From Escherichia coli (lineage in GTDB: Bacteria > Pseudomonadota > Gammaproteobacteria > Enterobacterales > Enterobacteriaceae), in assembly GCF_024298765.1 (NCBI RefSeq), contig NZ_CP101210.1: a DNA stretch of 64,000 bases; one strand, given 5' to 3'. The translations under genes and the position numbers were made by a program. The first letter of the stretch is position 1; every line of letters starts with the position of its first letter. This document shows, piece after piece, positions 39,411-61,015 of this stretch. The notes beneath the pieces are model-generated. The model was not told the origin of the DNA, made no database searches, and worked only from the letters and a program-made list of their open reading frames with translations.

Positions 39411-39619
39411 TGCGAGCAGCATTCCGGCATTTAAAGGTGAACATCGCAGGGAGAATTAACAGGTATAGAATGGAGTTGGGTGCTTGAGGCTGTCTGGCGT
39501 TAAGCATTCGCGAGGTTCCAGATGGACAAAAGCCCCAGGCGATATTTCTATCAACCTGAGGCCAGCGTTCGAACCTAAGCAATTCGAATGTTAGTCTCTT
39601 CTTTGCAGGGAGGCAAGAC

Positions 39620-39772
39620 ATGCTGACAAAATATGCCCTTGTGGCAATCATCGTACTGTGTTGTACAGTACTGGGATTCACGCTGATGGTAGGCGACTCG
39701 TTGTGTGAGTTGAGTATCAGAGAACGTGGTATGGAGTTTAAGGCAGTTCTCGCTTACGAATCGAAGAAGTAG
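39620..39772 (+). CDS. Hok/Gef-family type I toxin (50 aa), hokX-like
   Basis: ATG at 39620 with SD GGGAGG 7 nt upstream. Translation [50 protein letters not shown]: one TM helix then SLCE...AYES, diagnostic of Hok/Gef. A GC hairpin follows (CGCGGGGG-TAAAA-CCCCGCG, 39778-39797). Below the ORF-track length cutoff. Confidence 0.62.
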
Positions 39773-39829
39773 CCACCACGCGGGGGTAAAACCCCGCGTA
39801 CTGAATTGTGATGGTTTGGTCTCCTGCAC

Positions 39830-40009
39830 CCTTTTTTAATTTATATTGTTTATGTGAATATTATGCCTATGTTTATTATTTATATATATTATGGATGAAA
39901 ATCATTTAATTATTCACAATGTAAATATTTTATTGAAAGATATATGTCACAGATAATTTTTAATATATGCGTGAATATCCTTTAAGTTTTACTGAAGGAT
40001 AAAAATATT
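39830..40009 (+). promoter_or_regulatory. AT-rich cas3 upstream region (probable H-NS-silenced promoter)
   Basis: Strongly AT-rich (TATATATAT, ATTTAATTATT) immediately upstream of cas3. Confidence 0.4.
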
Positions 40010-42667
40010 GTGACTTTCTTTTATTTCTGGGGAAAAACCCGACGCGGCGAGAAAGACGGGGGCGAAGACTATCACCTTCTTTGCTGGCATTCGCTGGATG
40101 TAGCCGCGATGGGCTATTTAATGGTTAAAAGCAATTGCTTCGGACTGGCTGGCTATTTTCGTCAATTAGGTTTCGCTGACACGGAGCTGGCAGCACAATT
40201 TTTCGCCTGGCTGCTGTGCTGGCACGATATTGGAAAATTTGCCCGCTCTTTTCAGCAACTTTACCTGCACCCACAACTCAAGGTTCCGGAAGGCGCAAGA
40301 AAGAATTACGAAAAGATCTCTCATTCAACGCTGGGCTACTGGTTGTGGAACCATTATTTAAGTGAATGTCAGGAGTTGCTTCCTTCATCTTCACTCTCTC
40401 CGCGCAAACTTAAACGGGTGATGGAGATGTGGATGCCCATGACTACCGGGCATCATGGTCGACCCCCTGAGCGTATGGATGAACTGGATAATTTTCTGCC
40501 TGAAGACAAAGGTGCCGCACGAGATTTTCTCCTTGCAATCAAGGTACTGTTTCCGCTCATAGAGATCCCCACATTCTGGGATGATGACGAGGGCGTTGAA
40601 CTTATAAAACAACTTTCCTGGTATATCTCTGCAACCGTCGTACTTGCAGACTGGACGGGATCGTCAACGCGATATTTTCCACGCGTTGCACAGGCAATGG
40701 ATATTGAAGATTACTGGCAGAAAACTTTAGTTCAGGCTCAAAACGCCTTAACCGTCTTTCCTCCAAAAGCAGAAAGCGCGCCTTTCACCGGAATTAATAC
40801 GCTGTTTCCTTTTATTGAGAATCCGACACCGCTACAGCAAAAGGTGCTGGATCTGGATATCAGCCAGCCGGGACCACAGTTATTTATTCTGGAGGATGTA
40901 ACCGGCGCAGGTAAAACAGAAGCGGCGCTTATCCTGGCGCACAGGTTGATGGCTGCGGGGAAAGCGCAGGGTTTGTTTTTTGGCCTGCCAACAATGGCAA
41001 CGGCCAATGCCATGTACGATCGACTGGTCAAAACCTGGCTTGCTTTCTATTCGCCAGAGTCCCGCCCCAGCCTGGTGCTGGCACACAGTGCCCGAACATT
41101 AATGGACCGCTTTAATGAATCACTCTGGTCCGGTGATTTAGTCGGGTCAGAAGAACCGGATGAACAAACGTTCAGTCAGGGATGTGCGGCCTGGTTTGCC
41201 GACAGTAACAAGAAGGCGCTACTGGCTGAAATTGGCGTCGGCACGCTGGATCAGGCGATGATGGCTGTGATGCCGTTCAAACATAATAATCTGCGGCTTC
41301 TGGGACTGAGTAACAAAATCCTGCTGGCTGATGAGATCCATGCCTGTGACGCTTACATGTCATGCATTCTTGAAGGGCTGATCGAGCGGCAGGCGCGTGG
41401 CGGAAACAGCGTCATTTTGCTTTCTGCCACGTTATCTCAACAGCAGCGCGACAAACTCGTCGCCGCCTTTGCGCGTGGTATAGAGGGCCAGCAAGAAGCT
41501 CCGTTGCTGGAAAAGGATGATTACCCCTGGCTGACGCACGTTACGAAATCCGATGTGCATTCACACCGGGTAGCGACGCGCAAAGACGTTGAGCGCAGCG
41601 TGAGTGTGGGTTGGCTTCATAGCGAACAAGAGTGTATTGCGCGTATCGAATCGGCGGTAAGTCAGGGGAAATGTATCGCCTGGATCCGAAATTCTGTCGA
41701 TGACGCCATCCAGGTTCATCGTCAGTTACTTGCCCGCGGCGTCATTCCTGCTTCCAGCCTTTCACTTTTTCATAGCCGCTTTGCTTTTAGCGATCGCCAG
41801 CGAATTGAAACGGAGACGCTGGCACGCTTTGGTAAAGAAGACTGTTCACAGCGTGCCGGAAAAGTCCTCATTTGTACTCAAGTCCTGGAGCAGAGCGTTG
41901 ACTGCGACCTGGACGAAATGATTTCCGACCTTGCCCCTGTTGATTTACTGATCCAGCGGGCGGGGCGATTACAGCGGCATATCCGCGATATTAATGGTCT
42001 GTTAAAGCGTGACGGAAAAGACGAGCGTTCCCCTCCTGAATTTCTGATTCTGGCTCCCGTCTGGGACGACTCTCCGGGTGACGAATGGTTTGGCAGCGCC
42101 ATGCGTAACAGTGCATATGTCTACCCCGATCATGGGCGAATCTGGCTGACGCAGCGTGTGCTGCGTGAGCAAGGCGCTATTCAGATGCCACACGCAGCCC
42201 GGCTTCTTATTGAATCAGTCTACGGTGAAGACGTGGCAATGCCGGAAGGATTTGCCCGCAGTGAGCAGGAGCAAGTGGGCAAATATTACTGCGATCGCGC
42301 AATGGCTAAAAAGTTTGTCCTGAACTTCAAGCCTGGCTATGCCGCCAATATCAACGATTACCTTCCGGAAAAGCTGTCGACACGTCTGGCTGAGGAATCT
42401 GTTTCCCTGTGGCTGGCTACCTGTATTGACGGTGTGGTGAAGCCTTATGCCACCGGTGCTCACGCATGGGAAATGAGCGTTGTCAGAGTGCGTCGAAGCT
42501 GGTGGAAAAAACATCGGGATGAGTTTTCTTTACTGGAAGGGGATGCGTTCAGGCAGTGGTGCATTGAACAGCGGCAAGATCCGGAGATGGCAAACGTGAT
42601 TTTAGTCACCGATGACGAAAGTTGCGGGTATTCGGCTATGGAAGGATTGACTGGCAAGGTTGGTTGA
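40010..42667 (+). CDS. cas3: Type I-E CRISPR-associated nuclease/helicase Cas3
   Basis: 885-aa ORF; HD nuclease motifs (HSLDVAA, CWHDIGKF), helicase Walker A (TGAGKTEA) and DExH box (LLADEIHACD). Confidence 0.92.
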   Translation: MTFFYFWGKTRRGEKDGGEDYHLLCWHSLDVAAMGYLMVKSNCFGLAGYFRQLGFADTELAAQFFAWLLCWHDIGKFARSFQQLYLHPQLKVPEGARKNYEKISHSTLGYWLWNHYLSECQELLPSSSLSPRKLKRVMEMWMPMTTGHHGRPPERMDELDNFLPEDKGAARDFLLAIKVLFPLIEIPTFWDDDEGVELIKQLSWYISATVVLADWTGSSTRYFPRVAQAMDIEDYWQKTLVQAQNALTVFPPKAESAPFTGINTLFPFIENPTPLQQKVLDLDISQPGPQLFILEDVTGAGKTEAALILAHRLMAAGKAQGLFFGLPTMATANAMYDRLVKTWLAFYSPESRPSLVLAHSARTLMDRFNESLWSGDLVGSEEPDEQTFSQGCAAWFADSNKKALLAEIGVGTLDQAMMAVMPFKHNNLRLLGLSNKILLADEIHACDAYMSCILEGLIERQARGGNSVILLSATLSQQQRDKLVAAFARGIEGQQEAPLLEKDDYPWLTHVTKSDVHSHRVATRKDVERSVSVGWLHSEQECIARIESAVSQGKCIAWIRNSVDDAIQVHRQLLARGVIPASSLSLFHSRFAFSDRQRIETETLARFGKEDCSQRAGKVLICTQVLEQSVDCDLDEMISDLAPVDLLIQRAGRLQRHIRDINGLLKRDGKDERSPPEFLILAPVWDDSPGDEWFGSAMRNSAYVYPDHGRIWLTQRVLREQGAIQMPHAARLLIESVYGEDVAMPEGFARSEQEQVGKYYCDRAMAKKFVLNFKPGYAANINDYLPEKLSTRLAEESVSLWLATCIDGVVKPYATGAHAWEMSVVRVRRSWWKKHRDEFSLLEGDAFRQWCIEQRQDPEMANVILVTDDESCGYSAMEGLTGKVG

Positions 42668-42764
42668 GATGCCTGCGACAGGGCTCTCTGAATAGTTGAT
42701 ACACAGAAAAAGATGGAAGGATGGACAACCGGCCAGGGATGGTCTTTTTTACGAGAGGATGCGT

Positions 42765-44327
42765 ATGAACTCGTTTTCACTTCTGACAACCCCGTGGTTG
42801 CCCGTTCGTTTTAAAGACGGAACAACAGGCAAACTGGCGCCAGTCCATCTGGCGGATGAAAATGTTGTCGATATAGCTGCGCCGCGGGCAGATCTCCAGG
42901 GGGCGGCATGGCAGTTTTTGCTGGGGCTACTACAAACCAGCTTCGCGCCAAAAGATCATCGTCGTTGGGATGATATCTGGGAAGACGGACTGGAAGCTGA
43001 AAAGCTACGGGAGGCATTGCTGCCATTAGAGCACGCTTTCCAGTTTGGGCCAGATTCCCCTTCATTTATGCAGGATTTTGAGGCGCTCACGGGAGATAAA
43101 GTTCCGGTCGCTTCGCTACTGCCTGAGATTCCCGGCGTTCAAACAACAAAGTTTAATAAAGACCACTTTATCAAGCGTGGTGTAACGGAACACCTGTGCC
43201 CACAGTGTTCTGCACTAGCCTTGTTCTCTCTACAGTTAAATGCGCCGTCAGGCGGCAAAGGCTATCGCACCGGCTTACGCGGCGGTGGGCCGATGACTAC
43301 TCTGATTGAATTACAGGAATATCAGGGCAATCAACAAACTCCCTTGTGGCGCAAAATGTGGCTCAACGTGATGCCGCAGGATGAAGCCGACTTACCGCTA
43401 CCCAAAAAATTTGACGGTCTGGTTTTCCCCTGGCTTGGCCCGACGCGCACCAGCGAACTGGCCGGTGCGGTGGTAACCGATGATCAGGTTAATAAACTCC
43501 AGGCGTACTGGGGAATGCCGCGGCGTATTCGTATTGATTTTAATACCACGACAGTCGGCAACTGCGATATTTGCGGCGAGCAGAACGACGCGCTCCTGAG
43601 CCTGATGACGACCAAAAATTACGGTGCGAATTATGCCATGTGGCAGCATCCTTTAACGCCTTACCGTATACCACTTAAAGAGGGTGGCGAGTTTTACTCG
43701 GTCAAACCACAACCGGGCGGTTTAATCTGGCGCGACTGGTTAGGCCTTATCGAAACGGGTAAGTCAGAAAACAATACGGAACTTCCTGCACTGGTGGTGA
43801 AACTCTTTAATGCCAGCAGTCTGAAACAGGCAAAAGTGGGCCTATGGGGATTTGGTTATGATTTTGACAACATGAAAGCGCGCTGTTGGTACGAACACCA
43901 TTTCCCGCTACTGCTCAATAAAAAAGAAGGCCAGATACCGAAGCTGCGGCTGGCTGCGCAAACGGCTTCACGGATTCTGAGTCTGTTACGGAGTGCATTG
44001 AAAGAAGCATGGTTCTCCGATCCAAAAGGTGTAAGGGGTGATTTCAGTTTTGTGGATATCGACTTCTGGAACAAAACTCAGCATCGCTTCCTGAGGTTAG
44101 TGCGCCAAATTGAAGAAGGTCAGGATGCGGATGAATTACTCGGCAAATGGCAAAAGGAAATTTGGTTATTCGCGCGTCAGGATTTTGACGAGCGTGTATT
44201 CACTAATCCTTATGAGCCCGTTGATTTGAAACGCGTCATGACCGCGCGCAAGAAATATTTTACAACATCGGCGGAGAAGCAAAGTGCTAAAGCCGCCAGG
44301 GAGAAAAAGCAGGAGGCTGCTGAATGA
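42765..44327 (+). CDS. casA: Cascade large subunit Cse1 (CasA)
   Basis: Track ORF 42696-44327 (TTG start) trimmed to the ATG at 42765 with SD GAGAGG; about 520 aa, second gene of the cas operon. Confidence 0.85.
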   Translation: MNSFSLLTTPWLPVRFKDGTTGKLAPVHLADENVVDIAAPRADLQGAAWQFLLGLLQTSFAPKDHRRWDDIWEDGLEAEKLREALLPLEHAFQFGPDSPSFMQDFEALTGDKVPVASLLPEIPGVQTTKFNKDHFIKRGVTEHLCPQCSALALFSLQLNAPSGGKGYRTGLRGGGPMTTLIELQEYQGNQQTPLWRKMWLNVMPQDEADLPLPKKFDGLVFPWLGPTRTSELAGAVVTDDQVNKLQAYWGMPRRIRIDFNTTTVGNCDICGEQNDALLSLMTTKNYGANYAMWQHPLTPYRIPLKEGGEFYSVKPQPGGLIWRDWLGLIETGKSENNTELPALVVKLFNASSLKQAKVGLWGFGYDFDNMKARCWYEHHFPLLLNKKEGQIPKLRLAAQTASRILSLLRSALKEAWFSDPKGVRGDFSFVDIDFWNKTQHRFLRLVRQIEEGQDADELLGKWQKEIWLFARQDFDERVFTNPYEPVDLKRVMTARKKYFTTSAEKQSAKAAREKKQEAAE

Positions 44328-44860
44328 GTATTGTAAAAGAGGAGCACAAAGCCACGCTGCGTAAATGGCACGAAGAGTTGCAGGAAAAACGCGGCAATCG
44401 TGCCAGTCTGCGGCGTAGCACAACGGTTAATGATGTTTGTCTGTCAGAAGGGTTTCGTTCTCTGCTGATGCAGACCCACACGTTGTGGAAAATTGAATCA
44501 CAGGAGTGGCGTTTTACCGCACTGGCGCTGGTTGCCGCCGTTGCCGCCAATGTAAAAGCCATTGATGAACGGCAGCCTTTTGCCGCGCAGTTGGCGGCGG
44601 TAATGTCTGAGGGGCGTTTTACTCGCCTGTCGGCAGTCAAAACGCCGGATGAATTACTGCGCCAGTTACGTCGCGCGGTCAAATTATTAAATGGTTCCGT
44701 CAATCTTATCTCTTTGGCAGACGATATTTTCCGCTGGTGCCAGGAGAGCGACGATCTGCTCAATCATCACCGCCGCCAGCAGCGGCCAACAGAATTTATC
44801 CGTATCCGCTGGGCGCTGGAATATTACCAGGCTGGCGACGCCGATAACGAACAAAATTAA
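44324..44860 (+). CDS. casB: Cascade small subunit Cse2 (CasB)
   Basis: 178-aa ORF overlapping the casA stop. Confidence 0.85.
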   Translation: MSIVKEEHKATLRKWHEELQEKRGNRASLRRSTTVNDVCLSEGFRSLLMQTHTLWKIESQEWRFTALALVAAVAANVKAIDERQPFAAQLAAVMSEGRFTRLSAVKTPDELLRQLRRAVKLLNGSVNLISLADDIFRWCQESDDLLNHHRRQQRPTEFIRIRWALEYYQAGDADNEQN

Positions 44861-44874
44861 TAAAGGACTATCTC

Positions 44875-45930
44875 ATGACGACATTTATTCAGCTTCATTT
44901 GTTAACCGCTTACCCTGCTGCCAACCTTAACCGTGATGACACCGGTGCGCCAAAAACTGTGGTACTGGGTGGAGCAACGCGTCTGCGCGTTTCCTCACAA
45001 AGTCTGAAACGTGCGTGGCGCACTTCTGCACTTTTTGAACAGGCACTGGCGGGCCATATTGGTATTCGCAGTGGGCGTATTGCGCGTGAGGCGGCAACTA
45101 TCCTGATTGAGAAAGGCATCGAAGAGAAAAAAGCCATCGAATGGGCGGCAAAAATTGCGGATTATCTTGGGAAAGCTAAAAACGACAAAAAACCAAAAGA
45201 TCCGCTCACTAACGCCGAAACTGAACAGCTAGTCCATATCAGCCCGGCAGAATTTGACGCCGTAAAAGCGCTGGCCCATCAACTGGCCGAAGAAAAGCGC
45301 GCGCCAAAAGAGGAAGATCTCGCTTTGTTACGTAAAGATCGCATGGCGGTAGATATCGCTATGTTTGGTCGTATGCTGGCGAATAAACCCGAATTTAATG
45401 TTGAAGCCGCCTGCCAGGTCGCGCATGCATTTGGTGTCAGTGAAACGATTGTCGAAGATGATTTTTTCACCGCCGTTGATGATTTGCGCCAGGCTTCTGA
45501 AGATGCCGGTGCCGGGCATCTTGGTGAAACCGGATTCGGTTCTGCGCTGTTCTACACCTATATCTGCATCGATAAAGATCTGCTGGTCGAAAACCTCGGC
45601 GGTGACGAAGCGTTAGCTAATCAGACCTTGCGCGCCTTTACGGAAGCCGCACTTAAAGTCTCCCCAACCGGCAAACAGAACAGCTTTGCCAGCCGTGCCT
45701 ACGCCTCCTGGGCGCTGGCAGAAAAAGGCACTGAACAACCACGCTCTCTGGCGGCGGCTTTCTATGAACCCATTAATGGCACCCTCCAGTTAGATGTGGC
45801 GGTGCAGCGTATTACAACGCTTCGCGAAAATATGAATACGGTCTATGAACAGAAGACCGAATGTGCAAGCTTTGACGTGATGAACAAACAGGGAAGCATG
45901 AAGGACGTGCTGGACTTTATCTGCGCGTAA
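44875..45930 (+). CDS. casC: Cascade backbone subunit Cas7e (CasC)
   Basis: 351-aa ORF, correct position in the operon. Confidence 0.88.
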   Translation: MTTFIQLHLLTAYPAANLNRDDTGAPKTVVLGGATRLRVSSQSLKRAWRTSALFEQALAGHIGIRSGRIAREAATILIEKGIEEKKAIEWAAKIADYLGKAKNDKKPKDPLTNAETEQLVHISPAEFDAVKALAHQLAEEKRAPKEEDLALLRKDRMAVDIAMFGRMLANKPEFNVEAACQVAHAFGVSETIVEDDFFTAVDDLRQASEDAGAGHLGETGFGSALFYTYICIDKDLLVENLGGDEALANQTLRAFTEAALKVSPTGKQNSFASRAYASWALAEKGTEQPRSLAAAFYEPINGTLQLDVAVQRITTLRENMNTVYEQKTECASFDVMNKQGSMKDVLDFICA

Positions 45931-45940
45931 GGGGCGGCTA

Positions 45941-46687
45941 ATGAGCCAATATTTGATTTTTCAGCTTCATGGGCCAATGGCATCCTGGGGCGTCGATGCC
46001 CCTGGCGAAGTGCGTCATACCCATGAACTGCCTTCGCGCTCAGCATTGCTGGGGCTGCTGGCTGCCGGGGTAGGGATTCGGCGTGATGATACCGAACGAT
46101 TAAACGCGTTTAACCGCCACTATTCACTGGTGGTTTGCGCCAGCCGTAACCCGCGCTGGGCACGGGATTATCACACGGTCCAGATGCCAAAAGAGGTGCG
46201 TAAAGCGCGTTATTTCAGCCGTCGCGAAGAGTTGAGCGCCCCTGATCTTCTGAGCGCGATTATCTCCCGGCGCGACTACTACACCGATGCCTGGTGGATG
46301 GTGGCGGTGGCAACAACCCCCGATGCGCCTTACAGCCTTGAACAGTTGCAGGACGGTTTACGTCATCCGGTTTTTCCGCTTTATCTGGGGCGAAAAAGTC
46401 ATCCGCTGGCGTTACCACTTGCGCCGTTACTGCTCGAAGGCAACGCGTCTGATGTCTTACGTAACGCATACCAACAGTATCAGGATAGTTTCCGCGAACT
46501 GAAAGTCTCACTCCCGAAACTTCAGGATGAATGCTGGTGGGAAGGGGAACACGACGGCCTGGTCGCGAGCAAAATATTACGTCGCCGGGATGTTCCTTTA
46601 AATCGTCAGCAGTGGCTGTTTGGGGAACGCACCATCAATCAGGGGCCGTGGCTCAGCAAGGAGGAACCATGTACCTCTCAAGAATAA
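45941..46687 (+). CDS. casD: Cascade subunit Cas5e (CasD)
   Basis: 248-aa ORF; N-terminal LHGPMASWG resembles the Cas5 glycine-rich start. Confidence 0.85.
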   Translation: MSQYLIFQLHGPMASWGVDAPGEVRHTHELPSRSALLGLLAAGVGIRRDDTERLNAFNRHYSLVVCASRNPRWARDYHTVQMPKEVRKARYFSRREELSAPDLLSAIISRRDYYTDAWWMVAVATTPDAPYSLEQLQDGLRHPVFPLYLGRKSHPLALPLAPLLLEGNASDVLRNAYQQYQDSFRELKVSLPKLQDECWWEGEHDGLVASKILRRRDVPLNRQQWLFGERTINQGPWLSKEEPCTSQE

Positions 46688-47315
46688 CCTTACATACCGG
46701 CCAGCTTTCCCCAGCGCAGTTGCTGCATCTGGTGGATCGCGGTGAATATGTAATGCATCAGTGGCTGTGGGATCTTTTTCCTGGCGGCAAAGAAAGGCAA
46801 TTTCTTTATCGTCGGGAAGAACTCCAGGGGGCGTTTCGCTTTTTTGTCCTGTCGCAGGAACGCCCGGCGGAAAGTGATATTTTCACCATCGAATGCCGAC
46901 CATTTGCGCCAGAGTTGCGTACCGGACAATCCCTTTGTTTCAACCTGCGGGCGAATCCAACAATTTGTAAAGCGGGCAAACGCCACGACTTGCTGATGGA
47001 GGCGAAACGGCAGGTGAGGGGGCAGGTGGAAGGAAGTGATGTCTGGTTGCATCAACAACAGGCTGCGCTGGACTGGCTGGCAGCGCAGGGGGAGAGAAGC
47101 GGTTTTACACTGCTGGATACTTCGGTTGATGCCTACCGACAACAGCAACTGCGGCGGGAAAACTCCCGGCAACTGATCCAGTTCAGTAGCGTGGATTATA
47201 CGGGGATGCTTACGGTCACCGATCCTGGGTTATTTCTGCAACGTCTCAGTCAGGGGTATGGCAAAAGCCGGGCGTTCGGTTGTGGTCTGATGCTGATCAA
47301 ACCCGGAGCAGAGGC

Positions 47316-47319
<4 letters not shown>
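46669..47319 (+). CDS. casE: CRISPR pre-crRNA endoribonuclease Cas6e (CasE)
   Basis: Track ORF trimmed to MYLSRITLHTG (216 aa); C-terminal glycine-rich loop GYGKSRAFGCGLMLI. Confidence 0.85.
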
Positions 47320-48529
<1,210 letters not shown>

Positions 48530-48625
48530 GTTATCCGTTCTTTAAAAATAAGGAAATGTTTTAATTTAGTTGGTAGATTGTTGATGCGGAATAAATTTGT
48601 TTAAAAACAGTTATGTATGCTTAGT
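48530..48625 (+). promoter_or_regulatory. CRISPR leader (AT-rich, between cas2 and first repeat)
   Basis: 96-bp AT-rich spacer between the cas2 stop and repeat 1. Confidence 0.65.
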
Positions 48626-49935
48626 GTGTTCCCCGCGCCAGCGGGGATAAACCGCATTGAAAACATTGCCTTTATTTTATTTTTTGGTGTTCCCCGCGCC
48701 AGCGGGGATAAACCGGTGCCGCCGCTGGGCACTTCCTTCCCGTGAGTGTGTTCCCCGCGCCAGCGGGGATAAACCGCCCTGATAGCGTCCAGTTGAATGC
48801 GCGCCCGCGTGTTCCCCGCGCCAGCGGGGATAAACCGGCAGGCACGGGCAATATCAGACTCGGTCAAAGGTGTTCCCCGCGCCAGCGGGGATAAACCGCT
48901 CGGTTGTTTTCATATTACCGGCCTGCCACTGTGTTCCCCGCGCCAGCGGGGATAAACCGACAATATCCCGGACCGGGCGCTGATTTAGTCAGTGTTCCCC
49001 GCGCCAGCGGGGATAAACCGCGGACGGTGGGAATATAGAAAATCCGTCCACCGTGTTCCCCGCGCCAGCGGGGATAAACCGTTATACTCTTTTCATCGAC
49101 TAAGGAGGGGAGGGTGTTCCCCGCGCCAGCGGGGATAAACCGCAATAACGCAGCATCCAGGAAGCTGTTTCCGCGTGTTCCCCGCGCCAGCGGGGATAAA
49201 CCGCGATCGGTGAAGAGGTCCGCGAAATACTCACTGTGTTCCCCGCGCCAGCGGGGATAAACCGGCGATAGTTGATTCAGCCGCGCCAGCGAATGTGTGT
49301 TCCCCGCGCCAGCGGGGATAAACCGGGGCCGCCGCGAATTTACACACGATTCAATACGTGTTCCCCGCGCCAGCGGGGATAAACCGAACTGGTGCGCGAC
49401 GGCTGGCTAACAAAACGAGTGTTCCCCGCGCCAGCGGGGATAAACCGCGTGGCTGCGCTGGCCGTTGCAGCAGTTTGATGTGTTCCCCGCGCCAGCGGGG
49501 ATAAACCGCGTAAACGCCCCGTCGCCATTAATTTCGGGGTGTGTTCCCCGCGCCAGCGGGGATAAACCGTGGGATGAGCAAATAACGTCGTTTCCTAGAA
49601 AGTGTTCCCCGCGCCAGCGGGGATAAACCGCCGCCGTGCCAGTGATCCTCATACGGCCTGTTGTGTTCCCCGCGCCAGCGGGGATAAACCGAAATTAAGA
49701 ACGGCGTAAACGACGGCAGCATGGTGTTCCCCGCGCCAGCGGGGATAAACCGGTGATGATTCAGAGCAGACATTAGCCCGCGCTGTGTTCCCCGCGCCAG
49801 CGGGGATAAACCGGGTAAAAACACGGTCTGAACCGACATTCATGTGTGTTCCCCGCGTCAGCGGGGATAAACCGGACGCACTGGATGCGATGATGGATAT
49901 CACTTAGAATTCCCCGCCCCTGCGGTAGAACTCCC
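48626..49935 (+). CRISPR. Type I-E CRISPR array, 22 repeats (21 intact and a degenerate terminal repeat) and 21 spacers of 32 nt (cas-proximal array)
   Basis: 29-nt repeat GTGTTCCCCGCGCCAGCGGGGATAAACCG at strict 61-nt period from 48626 to 49846. The repeat at 49846 has a CGTCA variant; the terminal repeat at 49907-49935 is GAATTCCCCGCCCCTGCGGTAGAACTCCC. Confidence 0.97.
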
Positions 49936-58820: not shown

Positions 58821-59960
58821 ATGAGCGCGGGAAGCCCAAAATTCACCGTTCGCCGCATTGCGGCTTTGTCACTGGTTTCGCTATGGCTGGCAGGCTGTTC
58901 TGACACTTCAAATCCACCGGCACCGGTCAGCTCCGTTAATGGCAATGCGCCTGCAAATACCAATTCTGGTATGTTGATTACGCCGCCGCCGAAAATGGGG
59001 ACGACGTCTACAGCGCAGCAACCGCAAATTCAGCCGGTACAGCAGCCACAAATTCAGGCTACTCAACAACCGCAAATCCAGCCAGTACAGCCAGTAGCTC
59101 AGCAGCCGGTACAGATGGAAAACGGACGCATCGTCTACAACCGTCAGTATGGGAACATTCCGAAAGGCAGTTATAGCGGCAGTACCTATACCGTGAAAAA
59201 AGGCGACACACTTTTCTATATCGCCTGGATTACTGGCAACGATTTCCGTGACCTTGCTCAGCGCAACAATATTCAGGCACCATATGCGCTGAACGTCGGT
59301 CAGACCTTACAGGTGGGTAATGCTTCCGGTACGCCAATCACTGGCGGAAATGCCATTACCCAGGCCGACGCAGCAGAGCAAGGAGTTGTGATCAAGCCTG
59401 CACAAAATTCCACCGTTGCTGTTGCGTCGCAACCGACAATTACGTATTCTGAGTCTTCGGGTGAACAGAGTGCTAACAAAATGTTGCCGAACAACAAGCC
59501 AACTGCGACCACGGTCACAGCGCCTGTAACGGTACCAACAGCAAGCACAACCGAGCCGACTGTCAGCAGTACATCAACCAGTACGCCTATCTCCACCTGG
59601 CGCTGGCCGACTGAGGGCAAAGTGATCGAAACCTTTGGCGCTTCTGAGGGGGGCAACAAGGGGATTGATATCGCAGGCAGCAAAGGACAGGCAATTATCG
59701 CGACCGCAGATGGCCGCGTTGTTTATGCCGGTAACGCGCTGCGCGGCTACGGTAATCTGATTATCATCAAACATAATGATGATTACCTGAGTGCCTACGC
59801 CCATAACGACACAATGCTGGTCCGGGAACAACAAGAAGTGAAGGCGGGGCAAAAAATAGCAACCATGGGTAGCACCGGAACCAGTTCAACACGCTTGCAT
59901 TTTGAAATTCGTTACAAGGGGAAATCCGTAAACCCGCTGCGTTATTTGCCGCAGCGATAA
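58821..59960 (+). CDS. nlpD: Murein hydrolase activator lipoprotein NlpD (LysM plus M23 peptidase domain)
   Basis: 379-aa ORF; lipobox LAGCS, Q/P-rich repeats, LysM and M23 domains. Confidence 0.92.
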
Positions 59961-60022
59961 ATCGGCGGAACCAGGCTTTTGCTTGAATGTTCCGTCAAGG
60001 GATCACGGGTAGGAGCCACCTT

Positions 60023-61015
60023 ATGAGTCAGAATACGCTGAAAGTTCATGATTTAAATGAAGATGCGGAATTTGATGAGAACGGAGTTGAGGTTTTTGAC
60101 GAAAAGGCCTTAGTAGAAGAGGAACCCAGTGATAACGATTTGGCCGAAGAGGAACTGTTATCGCAGGGAGCCACACAGCGTGTGCTGGACGCGACTCAGC
60201 TTTACCTTGGTGAGATTGGTTATTCACCACTGTTAACGGCCGAAGAAGAAGTTTATTTTGCGCGTCGCGCACTGCGTGGAGATGTCGCCTCTCGCCGCCG
60301 GATGATCGAGAGTAACTTGCGTCTGGTGGTAAAAATTGCCCGCCGTTATGGCAATCGTGGTCTGGCGTTGCTGGACCTGATCGAAGAGGGCAACCTGGGG
60401 CTGATCCGCGCGGTAGAGAAGTTTGACCCGGAACGTGGTTTCCGCTTCTCAACATACGCAACCTGGTGGATTCGCCAGACGATCGAACGGGCGATTATGA
60501 ACCAAACCCGTACTATTCGTTTGCCGATTCACATCGTAAAGGAGCTGAACGTTTACCTGCGAACCGCACGCGAGTTGTCCCATAAACTGGACCACGAACC
60601 AAGTGCGGAAGAGATCGCAGAGCAACTGGATAAGCCAGTTGATGACGTCAGCCGTATGCTTCGTCTTAACGAGCGCATTACCTCGGTAGACACCCCGCTG
60701 GGTGGTGATTCCGAAAAAGCGTTGCTGGACATCCTGGCCGATGAAAAAGAGAACGGTCCGGAAGATACCACGCAAGATGACGATATGAAGCAGAGCATCG
60801 TCAAATGGCTGTTCGAGCTGAACGCCAAACAGCGTGAAGTACTGGCACGTCGATTCGGTTTGCTGGGGTACGAAGCGGCAACACTGGAAGATGTAGGTCG
60901 TGAAATTGGCCTCACCCGTGAACGTGTTCGCCAGATTCAGGTTGAAGGCCTGCGCCGTTTGCGCGAAATCCTGCAAACGCAGGGGCTGAATATCGAAGCG
61001 CTGTTCCGCGAATAA
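60023..61015 (+). CDS. rpoS: RNA polymerase sigma factor RpoS (sigma-38)
   Basis: Track ORF 59987-61015 trimmed to the ATG at 60023 ([17 protein letters not shown], 330 aa); no internal stop. Confidence 0.96.

Follow-up and report, generated by a model that had tools for sequence, protein, structure and literature searches.

An apparently intact Escherichia coli type I-E CRISPR-Cas locus, very probably of the majority cas-E1 form, whose cas3 is labelled frameshifted in close relatives

The 64-kb stretch of DNA analysed here (the window) comes from an E. coli chromosome near-identical to that of strain MSHS 133 and carries, in the cysH/iap interval, a CRISPR-Cas locus (40010-49935) whose proteins diverge from those of K-12 and whose cas3 gene has been labelled as frameshifted in relatives of the same sequence. 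Is this an unusual system, and can a functional one still be read from it? Our analysis shows a complete, apparently intact and ordinary locus of a kind that is already known. The genes lie in the order cas3, casA, casB, cas7, cas5, cas6e, cas1 and cas2, followed by a 96-nt leader and the array, and the surrounding synteny (cysJIH - hok/sok - cas3...cas2 - array - iap - cysDN) matches annotated E. coli genomes. The features are as follows.

22408-22924, plus strand: second array (CRISPR2.3), queE/ygcF side; 9 repeats starting GAG, 8 spacers
23392-23516, plus strand: degenerate array remnant (CRISPR2.2), ygcE side; one truncated and two complete or near-complete repeats
39773-40009, plus strand: AT-rich region upstream of cas3; 27.8% GC
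40010-42667, plus strand: cas3, fused HD nuclease and SF2 helicase; GTG start, 885 aa, probably intact
42668-42764, plus strand: cas3-casA intergenic spacer; 97 nt (K-12 counterpart 414 nt)
42765-44327, plus strand: casA/cse1, large Cascade subunit reading the PAM; 520 aa
44324-44860, plus strand: casB/cse2; 178 aa, start overlapping the casA stop in ATGA
44875-45930, plus strand: cas7e/casC; 351 aa
45941-46687, plus strand: cas5e/casD; 248 aa, NCBIfam match and exact protein in public databases
46669-47319, plus strand: cas6e/casE, pre-crRNA endonuclease; 216 aa, His30 and G-rich loop
47316-48239, plus strand: cas1e; 307 aa, GTG start overlapping the cas6e stop, 84.9% identity to K-12 Cas1
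48236-48529, plus strand: cas2e; 97 aa, 86.2% identity to K-12 Cas2
48530-48625, plus strand: leader; 96 nt, 26% GC, aligning along its length with the K-12 CRISPR1 leader
48626-49935, plus strand: main array (CRISPR2.1 / CRISPR1); 22 repeats of 29 nt, 21 spacers of 32 nt

A first-pass annotation had described a complete type I-E locus with a 21-spacer array, and profile searches corroborated this, since all eight Cas proteins exceeded the NCBIfam type I-E cut-offs. The signature genes stood above theirs (TIGR02547, casA, 606.8 bits with a cut-off of 70; TIGR02548, casB, 105.4 bits with a cut-off of 28.5), Cas3 was recognized as a fusion of an HD domain and an SF2 helicase (TIGR01596, 87 bits; TIGR01587, 214 bits), and Cas7e, Cas5e and Cas6e (TIGR01869, 445 bits; TIGR01868, 159.6 bits; TIGR01907, 287.8 bits) were joined by the adaptation pair Cas1e/Cas2e (TIGR03638, 380.9 bits; TIGR01873, 133 bits). 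The eight ORFs contain no internal stop and every length is divisible by 3. Apart from cas3, which is discussed below, the seven cas genes are intact and their products identical to widely distributed proteins, with the exact CasA found on at least 1000 contigs in public databases and the exact Cas5 likewise on record. The earlier description of all eight genes as intact and translationally coupled therefore stands for integrity, with cas3 probably included, but not for coupling: only casA-casB, cas5-cas6e, cas6e-cas1 and cas1-cas2 overlap, casB and cas7 are separated by 14 nt, cas7 and cas5 by 10 nt, and cas3 and casA by 97 nt. The catalytic motifs reported for Cas3 (HD and DExH) and Cas6e (Gly-rich loop) were found and could be aligned to K-12. 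In Cas3 they are H72/D73 of the HD domain, K302 of Walker A, DEIH at 441-444 and SAT at 472-474, and alignment showed conservation of the K-12 residues H74/D75, K320, D452 and S483/T485. Cas6e has His30, the equivalent of K-12 H20, together with a GYGKSRAFGCG loop, and Cas1 retains the active-site residues of K-12, E141/H208/D221. Searches with Rfam at the gathering threshold gave no curated RNA family inside the cas genes or the array, the sole match being sok, upstream of the cas genes, and a promoter consensus scan was uninformative (3 sites, 9.8 expected).

The repeat of the main array, GTGTTCCCCGCG(C/T)CAGCGGGGATAAACCG, occurs in 21 copies with an exact 61-nt period between 48626 and 49874, where 0 are expected by chance. 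Repeat 21 carries a C-to-T change, repeat 22 (49907-49935) is degenerate, and the repeat can be folded into a hairpin with a 7-bp stem (-15.2 kcal/mol, z = -3.2). The array on the queE side does begin with GAG, as had been noticed from its repeats, and its five leader-proximal repeats are altered from G to A in the stem and from C to T in the loop. The earlier count of 21 + 8 + 2 spacers is reasonable given the third remnant at 23392-23516.

Divergence of the Cas proteins from K-12 had also been proposed, and alignment bears it out: Cas3, CasA, CasB, Cas7, Cas5 and Cas6e share 24-35% identity with their K-12 counterparts (24% for CasA, whose ORF begins MNSFSLLTTPW, as first read), as opposed to 85-86% for Cas1 and Cas2. 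The K-12-type equivalogs of Cas3 and CasA were missed (NF007248 at 421.9 bits with a cut-off of 569; NF007247 at 106 bits with a cut-off of 576). This divergence is not peculiar to the strain. It is the published dichotomy between a majority cas-E1 and a minority cas-E2 form, in which K-12 is the exception (Almendros 2014, mBio, PMC3903273), the cas-E1 form being defined by cas genes of ~53.5% GC, the cysH-iap site and a grouping with Salmonella and E. albertii and not with K-12 (PMC3903273). Here, the cas genes' GC content (51.9%, compared with 44.8% measured for K-12), the synteny, and a Cas3 with 93-94% identity to the E1 proteins of E. coli and E. fergusonii, 74% to the Salmonella protein and 32.5% to that of K-12 all correspond to cas-E1, and we regard the locus, with considerable confidence, as this majority form of the adaptive type I-E CRISPR-Cas immune system that E. 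coli carries on its chromosome. Of 5426 complete E. coli genomes, 2407 contain at least 80% of the 10.6-kb stretch, and the standard locus is present in about half of the strains sequenced. Site, gene order, GC content (~52-53%), GTG-type repeat and leader are the same as in the cas-E1 loci of O157:H7, E. albertii and Salmonella enterica (PMC3903273), the companion CRISPR2.2 and CRISPR2.3 arrays are also common to both, and the only differences are at the level of the lineage, namely a T4 allele lying upstream of the GTG of cas3 and the set of spacers.

In relation to the cas-E2 system of K-12, architecture, site and catalytic residues are the same, the leader aligns along its length, the repeat differs by 1 nt and the oldest spacer, sp21, is shared, but the 97 nt between cas3 and casA replace an interval of 414 nt. 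In K-12 that interval houses the H-NS/LeuO-controlled Pcas, and the CRISPR-Cas system of that strain is silenced by H-NS. Because of this difference, what is established for K-12 regulation may not transfer to the locus described here. The system is a textbook one and the species has been sampled well, so the locus matters little alone. Knowledge of CRISPR mechanism in E. coli, however, comes mostly from the minority E2 variant, and the majority E1 effector has ~30% identity to it and a very different cas3-casA control region.

The integrity of cas3 requires closer consideration. RefSeq/PGAP annotates the gene as 'frameshifted' in MSHS 133, FDAARGOS_1286 and strain 104, whose sequence is identical here, and the flag arises from one extra T in the run at 39986-39989 (T4 here, T3 in most strains) when the gene is read against an 899-aa model starting at ATG 39967. 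The T4 allele is rare: among 2752 genomes sharing this 5' end of cas3, 74 carry it. A frameshift in any cas gene had been named beforehand as evidence against an intact locus; the RefSeq flag formally provides one, but the N-termini of orthologues favour an intact gene starting at GTG 40010. The protein opens with M-x(1-4)-[YF]WGK in 19 orthologues, among them those of Salmonella, Citrobacter, Klebsiella, Raoultella and Cronobacter. This start matches GTG 40010 (MTFFYFWGK), and the 14-aa N-terminal extension is found in E. coli models only. On 385 contigs the identical 885-aa protein carries the annotation Cas3, and E. fergusonii, too, has a form of 885 aa. In five other genera the orthologous proteins begin where GTG 40010 lies, so the 885-aa Cas3 is probably intact, and since the extra T lies upstream of this conserved start, a gene model beginning at GTG 40010 is to be preferred. 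The RefSeq 899-aa model of E1 Cas3 thus probably begins 14 codons too early, and Cas3 is probably produced from GTG 40010. If translation from ATG 39967 were real, it would run through a short frame (39967-40002, MREYPLSFTEG*) and would require re-initiation at GTG 40010 for Cas3 to be made.

The flag could also be taken at face value, in which case the +1 T at 39986-39989 truly inactivates cas3, Cascade and Cas1-Cas2 remain, and the array is the fossil of a decaying, interference-dead system. The confinement of the T4 allele to 74 genomes, the three PGAP calls, and the internal stop in casA of strain 104 and IS421 insertions in related loci, which indicate that decay of the locus occurs in this lineage, speak for such a reading. 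We consider it unlikely, because the frameshift touches only 14 codons, which no orthologue outside Escherichia possesses, the other 885 codons are open with all catalytic motifs kept, the other seven cas genes are intact, and the TAA at 40000-40002 is followed by AAGGA-N10-GTG, a normal start context in which the Shine-Dalgarno-like AAGGA (39995-39999) precedes GTG 40010 by 10 nt. As the 899-aa model is probably too long, an intact cas3 appears to have been labelled a pseudogene in at least the three closest complete genomes compared here, of the 74 with the T4 allele, and such mislabelling could bias surveys of CRISPR-Cas integrity.

With an intact Cas3, the locus would be expected to work as characterized type I-E systems do. 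The AT-rich leader would drive transcription of the array, Cas6e would cleave each repeat hairpin, and the resulting 61-nt crRNA would assemble with CasA, CasB, Cas7, Cas5 and Cas6e into Cascade. A protospacer beside an AWG-type PAM would then be found by Cascade and the HD-helicase Cas3 recruited to degrade the DNA, while Cas1-Cas2 would add new spacers next to the leader. By the same analogy, the locus may be expressed and still capable of interference.

The spacers store fragments of past invaders. The first-pass annotation had proposed that they be searched for targets beside AWG PAMs and had raised the possibility of self-targeting. Six of the 21 main-array spacers (sp1, sp4, sp14, sp16, sp19 and sp20) match mobile elements, which are prophages, P1/P7 phage-plasmids and a Salmonella plasmid.

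48655-48686: sp1, siphovirus-type prophage of E24377A; PAM ATG
48838-48869: sp4, siphovirus-type prophage of E24377A; perfect matches with PAM CTG or CTT, depending on the prophage
49448-49479: sp14, P2-like prophage of strain 40EC; PAM ACG
49570-49601: sp16, Salmonella Dublin IncFII/IncX1 plasmid pSD_77, 30/32; PAM ATG
49753-49784: sp19, P2-like prophage of strain 40EC; PAM ATG
49814-49845: sp20, P7, SJ46 and P1-like plasmids, 32/32; PAM CTG
49875-49906: sp21, ancestral trailer spacer, common even to K-12

Matches for sp16 and sp20 came from a phage and plasmid search with the arrays at E <= 1, as did that of CRISPR2.3 spacer 6 to phage vB_EcoM-569R10 (29/32, PAM AAG), and the prophage matches of sp1, sp4, sp14 and sp19 were in E. 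coli chromosomes only. The protospacers of sp1 and sp4 lie in one E24377A prophage, on the same strand and 3.5 kb apart, and those of sp14 and sp19 likewise share a strand, in a single P2-like prophage of 40EC. The remaining 15 of 21 spacers had no match in a search whose megablast step depends on 28 identical bases and would therefore overlook diverged protospacers. Self-targeting was not found: no spacer had a match at 9 or fewer mismatches in the 64-kb window outside the arrays, and in the relatives D10 (21 spacers) and MSHS 133 (18 spacers queried) the array was the sole matching place.

The PAMs followed the expected motif in part. In this small sample of seven spacers, the commonest PAM was ATG, seen at sp1, sp16 and sp19, and AAG stood at CRISPR2.3 spacer 6, but CTG/CTT at sp4, CTG at sp20 and ACG at sp14 departed from AWG. 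CTG (or CTT) is listed as non-interfering in the K-12 system (PMC3737346). A slipped AAG behind the CTG PAMs did not account for them consistently, as it is present 3 nt further upstream for sp20 and absent for sp4. Since CasA is only 24% identical to that of K-12, within a Cascade that has strongly diverged overall, one could suppose that the E1 PAM repertoire is altered and CTG licensed, so that P7-like phage-plasmids and ST131-type prophages are live targets and not escapers; two of the three spacers with perfect matches examined first have CTG. This appears very improbable in view of the tiny sample, in which ATG flanks sp1, sp16, sp19 and also the P1 version of the sp20 target (4 mismatches) and AAG flanks CRISPR2.3 spacer 6. 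The CTT beside the sp4 protospacer in another prophage suggests that the position is polymorphic or under escape selection, and natural spacers were themselves the source of the E. coli AWG consensus (PMC6568314). Taken as one proposition, that the extra T is a lineage-specific knock-down of Cas3 (many of the isolates being from poultry) or that the E1 Cascade PAM set differs from that of K-12 has a slim chance of being true. If the knock-down were real, Cascade and Cas1/Cas2 would bind DNA without degrading it, and the perfect matches flanked by CTG in P7-like elements and prophages would be tolerated.

An intact E1 system with an ordinary PAM preference remains the reading we favour. The spacer set is common in part to ~60 complete genomes, many from poultry. 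Among the close relatives compared there was no gain of spacers at the leader end, only internal losses, and because strains sharing the array differ in this way alone it looks like an old record that is not actively growing, a pattern of deletions that also speaks for the reading as a decaying system. In CRISPR2.3, the spacer at 22437-22468 is absent from MSHS 133, but recent acquisition was discarded as an explanation: for the leader-proximal repeat-spacer-repeat unit, at least 40 other complete genomes were listed with 100% identity across the whole unit, and 80 genomes lie in the band of at least 99%. Being so widespread, the spacer was lost by MSHS 133. An apparent replacement of three spacers relative to MSHS 133 (76 mismatches) likewise comes down to each of the two strains having independently lost one spacer.

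The cas locus can be regarded, judging from its sequence, as a complete type I-E system, and lies in an E. coli chromosomal segment that is 100% identical to strain MSHS 133 (NZ_CP041304.1) over 22.4 kb and 99.994% identical over 17.5 kb. Gene order is cysJ-cysI-cysH, a hok/sok locus, eight cas genes, leader, CRISPR array, iap (minus strand) and cysD/cysN. The cas genes are listed here with the identity of each product to its K-12 counterpart.

40010-42667, plus strand: cas3, GTG start, 885 aa; 32.5%
42765-44327, plus strand: casA, 520 aa, N-terminus MNSFSLLTTPW; 24%
44324-44860, plus strand: casB; 27%
44875-45930, plus strand: cas7; 33%
45941-46687, plus strand: cas5; 35%
46669-47319, plus strand: cas6e; 31%
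47316-48239, plus strand: cas1, GTG start; 85%
48236-48529, plus strand: cas2; 86%

All eight Cas proteins scored above the curated cut-offs of the corresponding NCBIfam I-E models, and alignment to the K-12 proteins, in which the catalytic residues were experimentally defined, showed that these residues are kept in Cas3 (HD H72/D73, Walker A K302, DEIH 441-444, motif III SAT 472-474), Cas6e (His30) and Cas1 (E141/H208/D221). These results corroborate the first-pass annotation, which had described a complete system with catalytic motifs. It had also called the genes translationally coupled, and four junctions do overlap by 4-19 nt, but two are gaps of 10-14 nt and cas3 and casA are 97 nt apart.

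A frameshift in any cas gene would have undermined this reading, and RefSeq does flag cas3 as a frameshifted pseudogene, from an ATG equivalent to 39967, in the three complete genomes nearest to this one, all identical to it here. Genomes with an "intact" 899-aa Cas3 carry TTT where the window has TTTT (39986-39989), an allele found in 74 of the 2752 complete genomes having this cas3 5' end. In the window, the frame of ATG 39967 ends after 11 codons (TAA at 40000-40002) and the long cas3 ORF opens at GTG 40010 in the +1 frame, with AAGGA 10 nt upstream. However, Cas3 orthologues retrieved by homologue search from Salmonella, Citrobacter, Klebsiella, Raoultella, Phytobacter, Intestinirhabdus, Atlantibacter, Enterobacter and Cronobacter (56-75% identity, 877-892 aa) all begin M-x(1-4)-[YF]-W-G-K, as in MSIFNYWGKT, and the GTG start gives MTFFYFWGKT, the same position. 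Among the sequences inspected, the 14-residue extension MRKYPLSLLKDKNI occurs in E. coli models only; 385 contigs have the exact 885-aa protein on record as Cas3, and an 885-aa model exists in E. fergusonii too. Since the orthologue starts match GTG 40010, the frameshift question is resolved: we infer an intact Cas3, with the extra T located in the 5' untranslated region, and a true cas3 pseudogene is quite improbable. In close relatives the same locus shows real decay: strain 104 has an internal stop in casA, and in several relatives, most of them from birds, IS421 (IS4-family) insertions fall inside the matched cas-CRISPR stretch.

The reported divergence from K-12 was borne out for Cas3 and Cascade (24-35% identity) and is smaller for Cas1/Cas2 (85-86%), and the window's proteins did not attain the cut-offs of the K-12-specific NCBIfam equivalog models. 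The cas genes have 51.9% GC, compared with 44.8% in K-12. The cas3-casA spacer is 97 nt rather than 414 nt, so the Pcas/H-NS/LeuO regulation of K-12 may not carry over to this locus. The divergence has been described before as the cas-E1/cas-E2 dichotomy: the E1 genes, the primary cas-E set of E. coli (53.5% GC), cluster with those of Salmonella and E. albertii, and the E2 variant (45.6% GC) replaced them in a minority including K-12 (Almendros et al. 2014, PMC3903273). The same two variants appear in a 2025 survey (PMC12736100). Of 5426 complete genomes, 2407 carry 80% or more of this 10.6-kb stretch; therefore the divergence is real but well known, with K-12 as the exception. The locus was correctly read, but the system is already known and very common, and our additions are limited to the E1 Cas3 start with its probably false pseudogene calls, a matter of annotation, and to spacer targets of a routine kind.

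The main array contains 21 copies of a 29-nt repeat with an exact 61-nt period (48626-49874; 0 expected by chance) and a degenerate terminal repeat (49907-49935), which makes 21 spacers, each 32 nt long. The repeat forms the expected 7-bp hairpin (-15.2 kcal/mol), and the leader (96 nt, 26% GC) can be aligned with that of K-12. The queE-side array, CRISPR2.3, has 8 spacers (22408-22924), and an array remnant lies at 23392-23516. The first-pass annotation was right on the locus coordinates (40010-49935), the spacer count, the CasA N-terminus and the difference between GTG and GAG repeats. The five leader-proximal CRISPR2.3 repeats (22408-22680) carry a G-to-A change in the stem and C-to-T in the loop (GAGTTCCCCACGTCAGCGGGGATAAACCG), with which the predicted hairpin is less stable (-9.7 instead of -15.1 kcal/mol), and this variant is common to about 100 complete genomes. 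The pattern suggests that several spacers joined the array after a mutation in the first repeat.

As had been proposed, we looked for spacer targets, taking the arrays as queries against 50,697 phage records, 72,556 plasmids and 5,426 complete E. coli genomes, and then read the flanks. Targets were found for 6 of the 21 main-array spacers (sp1-sp21, numbered from the leader); these are temperate phages and plasmids, as would be expected.

Spacer targets, matches and PAMs
sp1: siphovirus-type prophage at tRNA-Ser, E24377A; 32/32; ATG
sp4: same E24377A prophage as sp1, same strand, 3.5 kb away; 32/32; CTT
sp4: related prophage adjoining a tRNA-Leu gene, ST131 and other strains; 32/32; CTG
sp14: P2-like prophage, strain 40EC; 32/32; ACG
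sp16: intergenic site, Salmonella Dublin IncFII/IncX1 plasmids, e.g. pSD_77; 30/32; ATG
sp19: same 40EC prophage as sp14, same strand; 32/32; ATG
sp20: lxr/upf94.2 gene of P7, SJ46 and many P1-like phage-plasmids; 32/32; CTG
sp20: canonical P1; 4 mismatches; ATG
CRISPR2.3 spacer 6: Escherichia phage vB_EcoM-569R10; 29/32; AAG

The anticipated AWG was the commonest PAM, present at sp1, sp16, sp19, the P1 copy of sp20 and CRISPR2.3 spacer 6, but not at sp4, sp14 or the P7-type sp20 target; the -1 base is G, as expected for I-E, at all sites but the CTT copy of the sp4 target. For the K-12 system, CTG is listed among the PAMs that do not support interference (PMC3737346). Target variants differ at the PAM position, as could result from escape or from an original target that was not sampled, and a new PAM cannot be claimed from only seven protospacers. 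No self-targets were found in the window outside the arrays at up to 9 mismatches, or in the relatives D10 (all 21 spacers queried) and MSHS 133 (18 spacers queried).

The trailer spacer, sp21, is in most of about 4,400 genomes with any match, K-12 included. One internal spacer of MSHS 133 is missing from the window, and sp4 is missing from MSHS 133; the D10 array contains the full set of 21 together with three additional internal spacers, and subsets of the array occur in about 60 complete genomes, of which many come from chickens, turkeys or other birds. Recent gain of the CRISPR2.3 leader-end spacer, absent in MSHS 133, was considered and rejected, since at least 40 other genomes listed carry it at 100% identity, indicating loss in MSHS 133. 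No sign of recent acquisition was seen in comparisons with MSHS 133, D10, the array-sharing genomes or the CRISPR2.3 carriers, in keeping with the idea that E. coli arrays are records that decay slowly.

Other features of the window were also observed. An intact hok/sok-type toxin-antitoxin locus (39478-39772; Rfam sok match of 111.7 bits at 39478-39635, 50-aa Hok/Gef ORF at 39620-39772) lies between cysH and cas3 and is followed by a GC-rich hairpin, whereas in K-12 nothing but the sRNA remnant sokX is annotated there. Between relA (13798-16032) and mazG (16128-16919) there are 95 nt (16033-16127) without the mazEF toxin-antitoxin pair, which lies there in K-12. GC is low (39-45%) from 20 to 24 kb. 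In MSHS 133, 100% identical to the window here, RefSeq calls ygcG (TPM-domain protein) and an adjacent small ORF (about 20229-21258) frameshifted pseudogenes. A 24-nt tandem repeat (2.7 copies, 59019-59083) encodes QQPQIQPV repeats within a 379-aa ORF (58821-59960), presumably nlpD-like since it lies between a pcm-like ORF and rpoS; the rpoS-like ORF downstream (59987-61015) is open.
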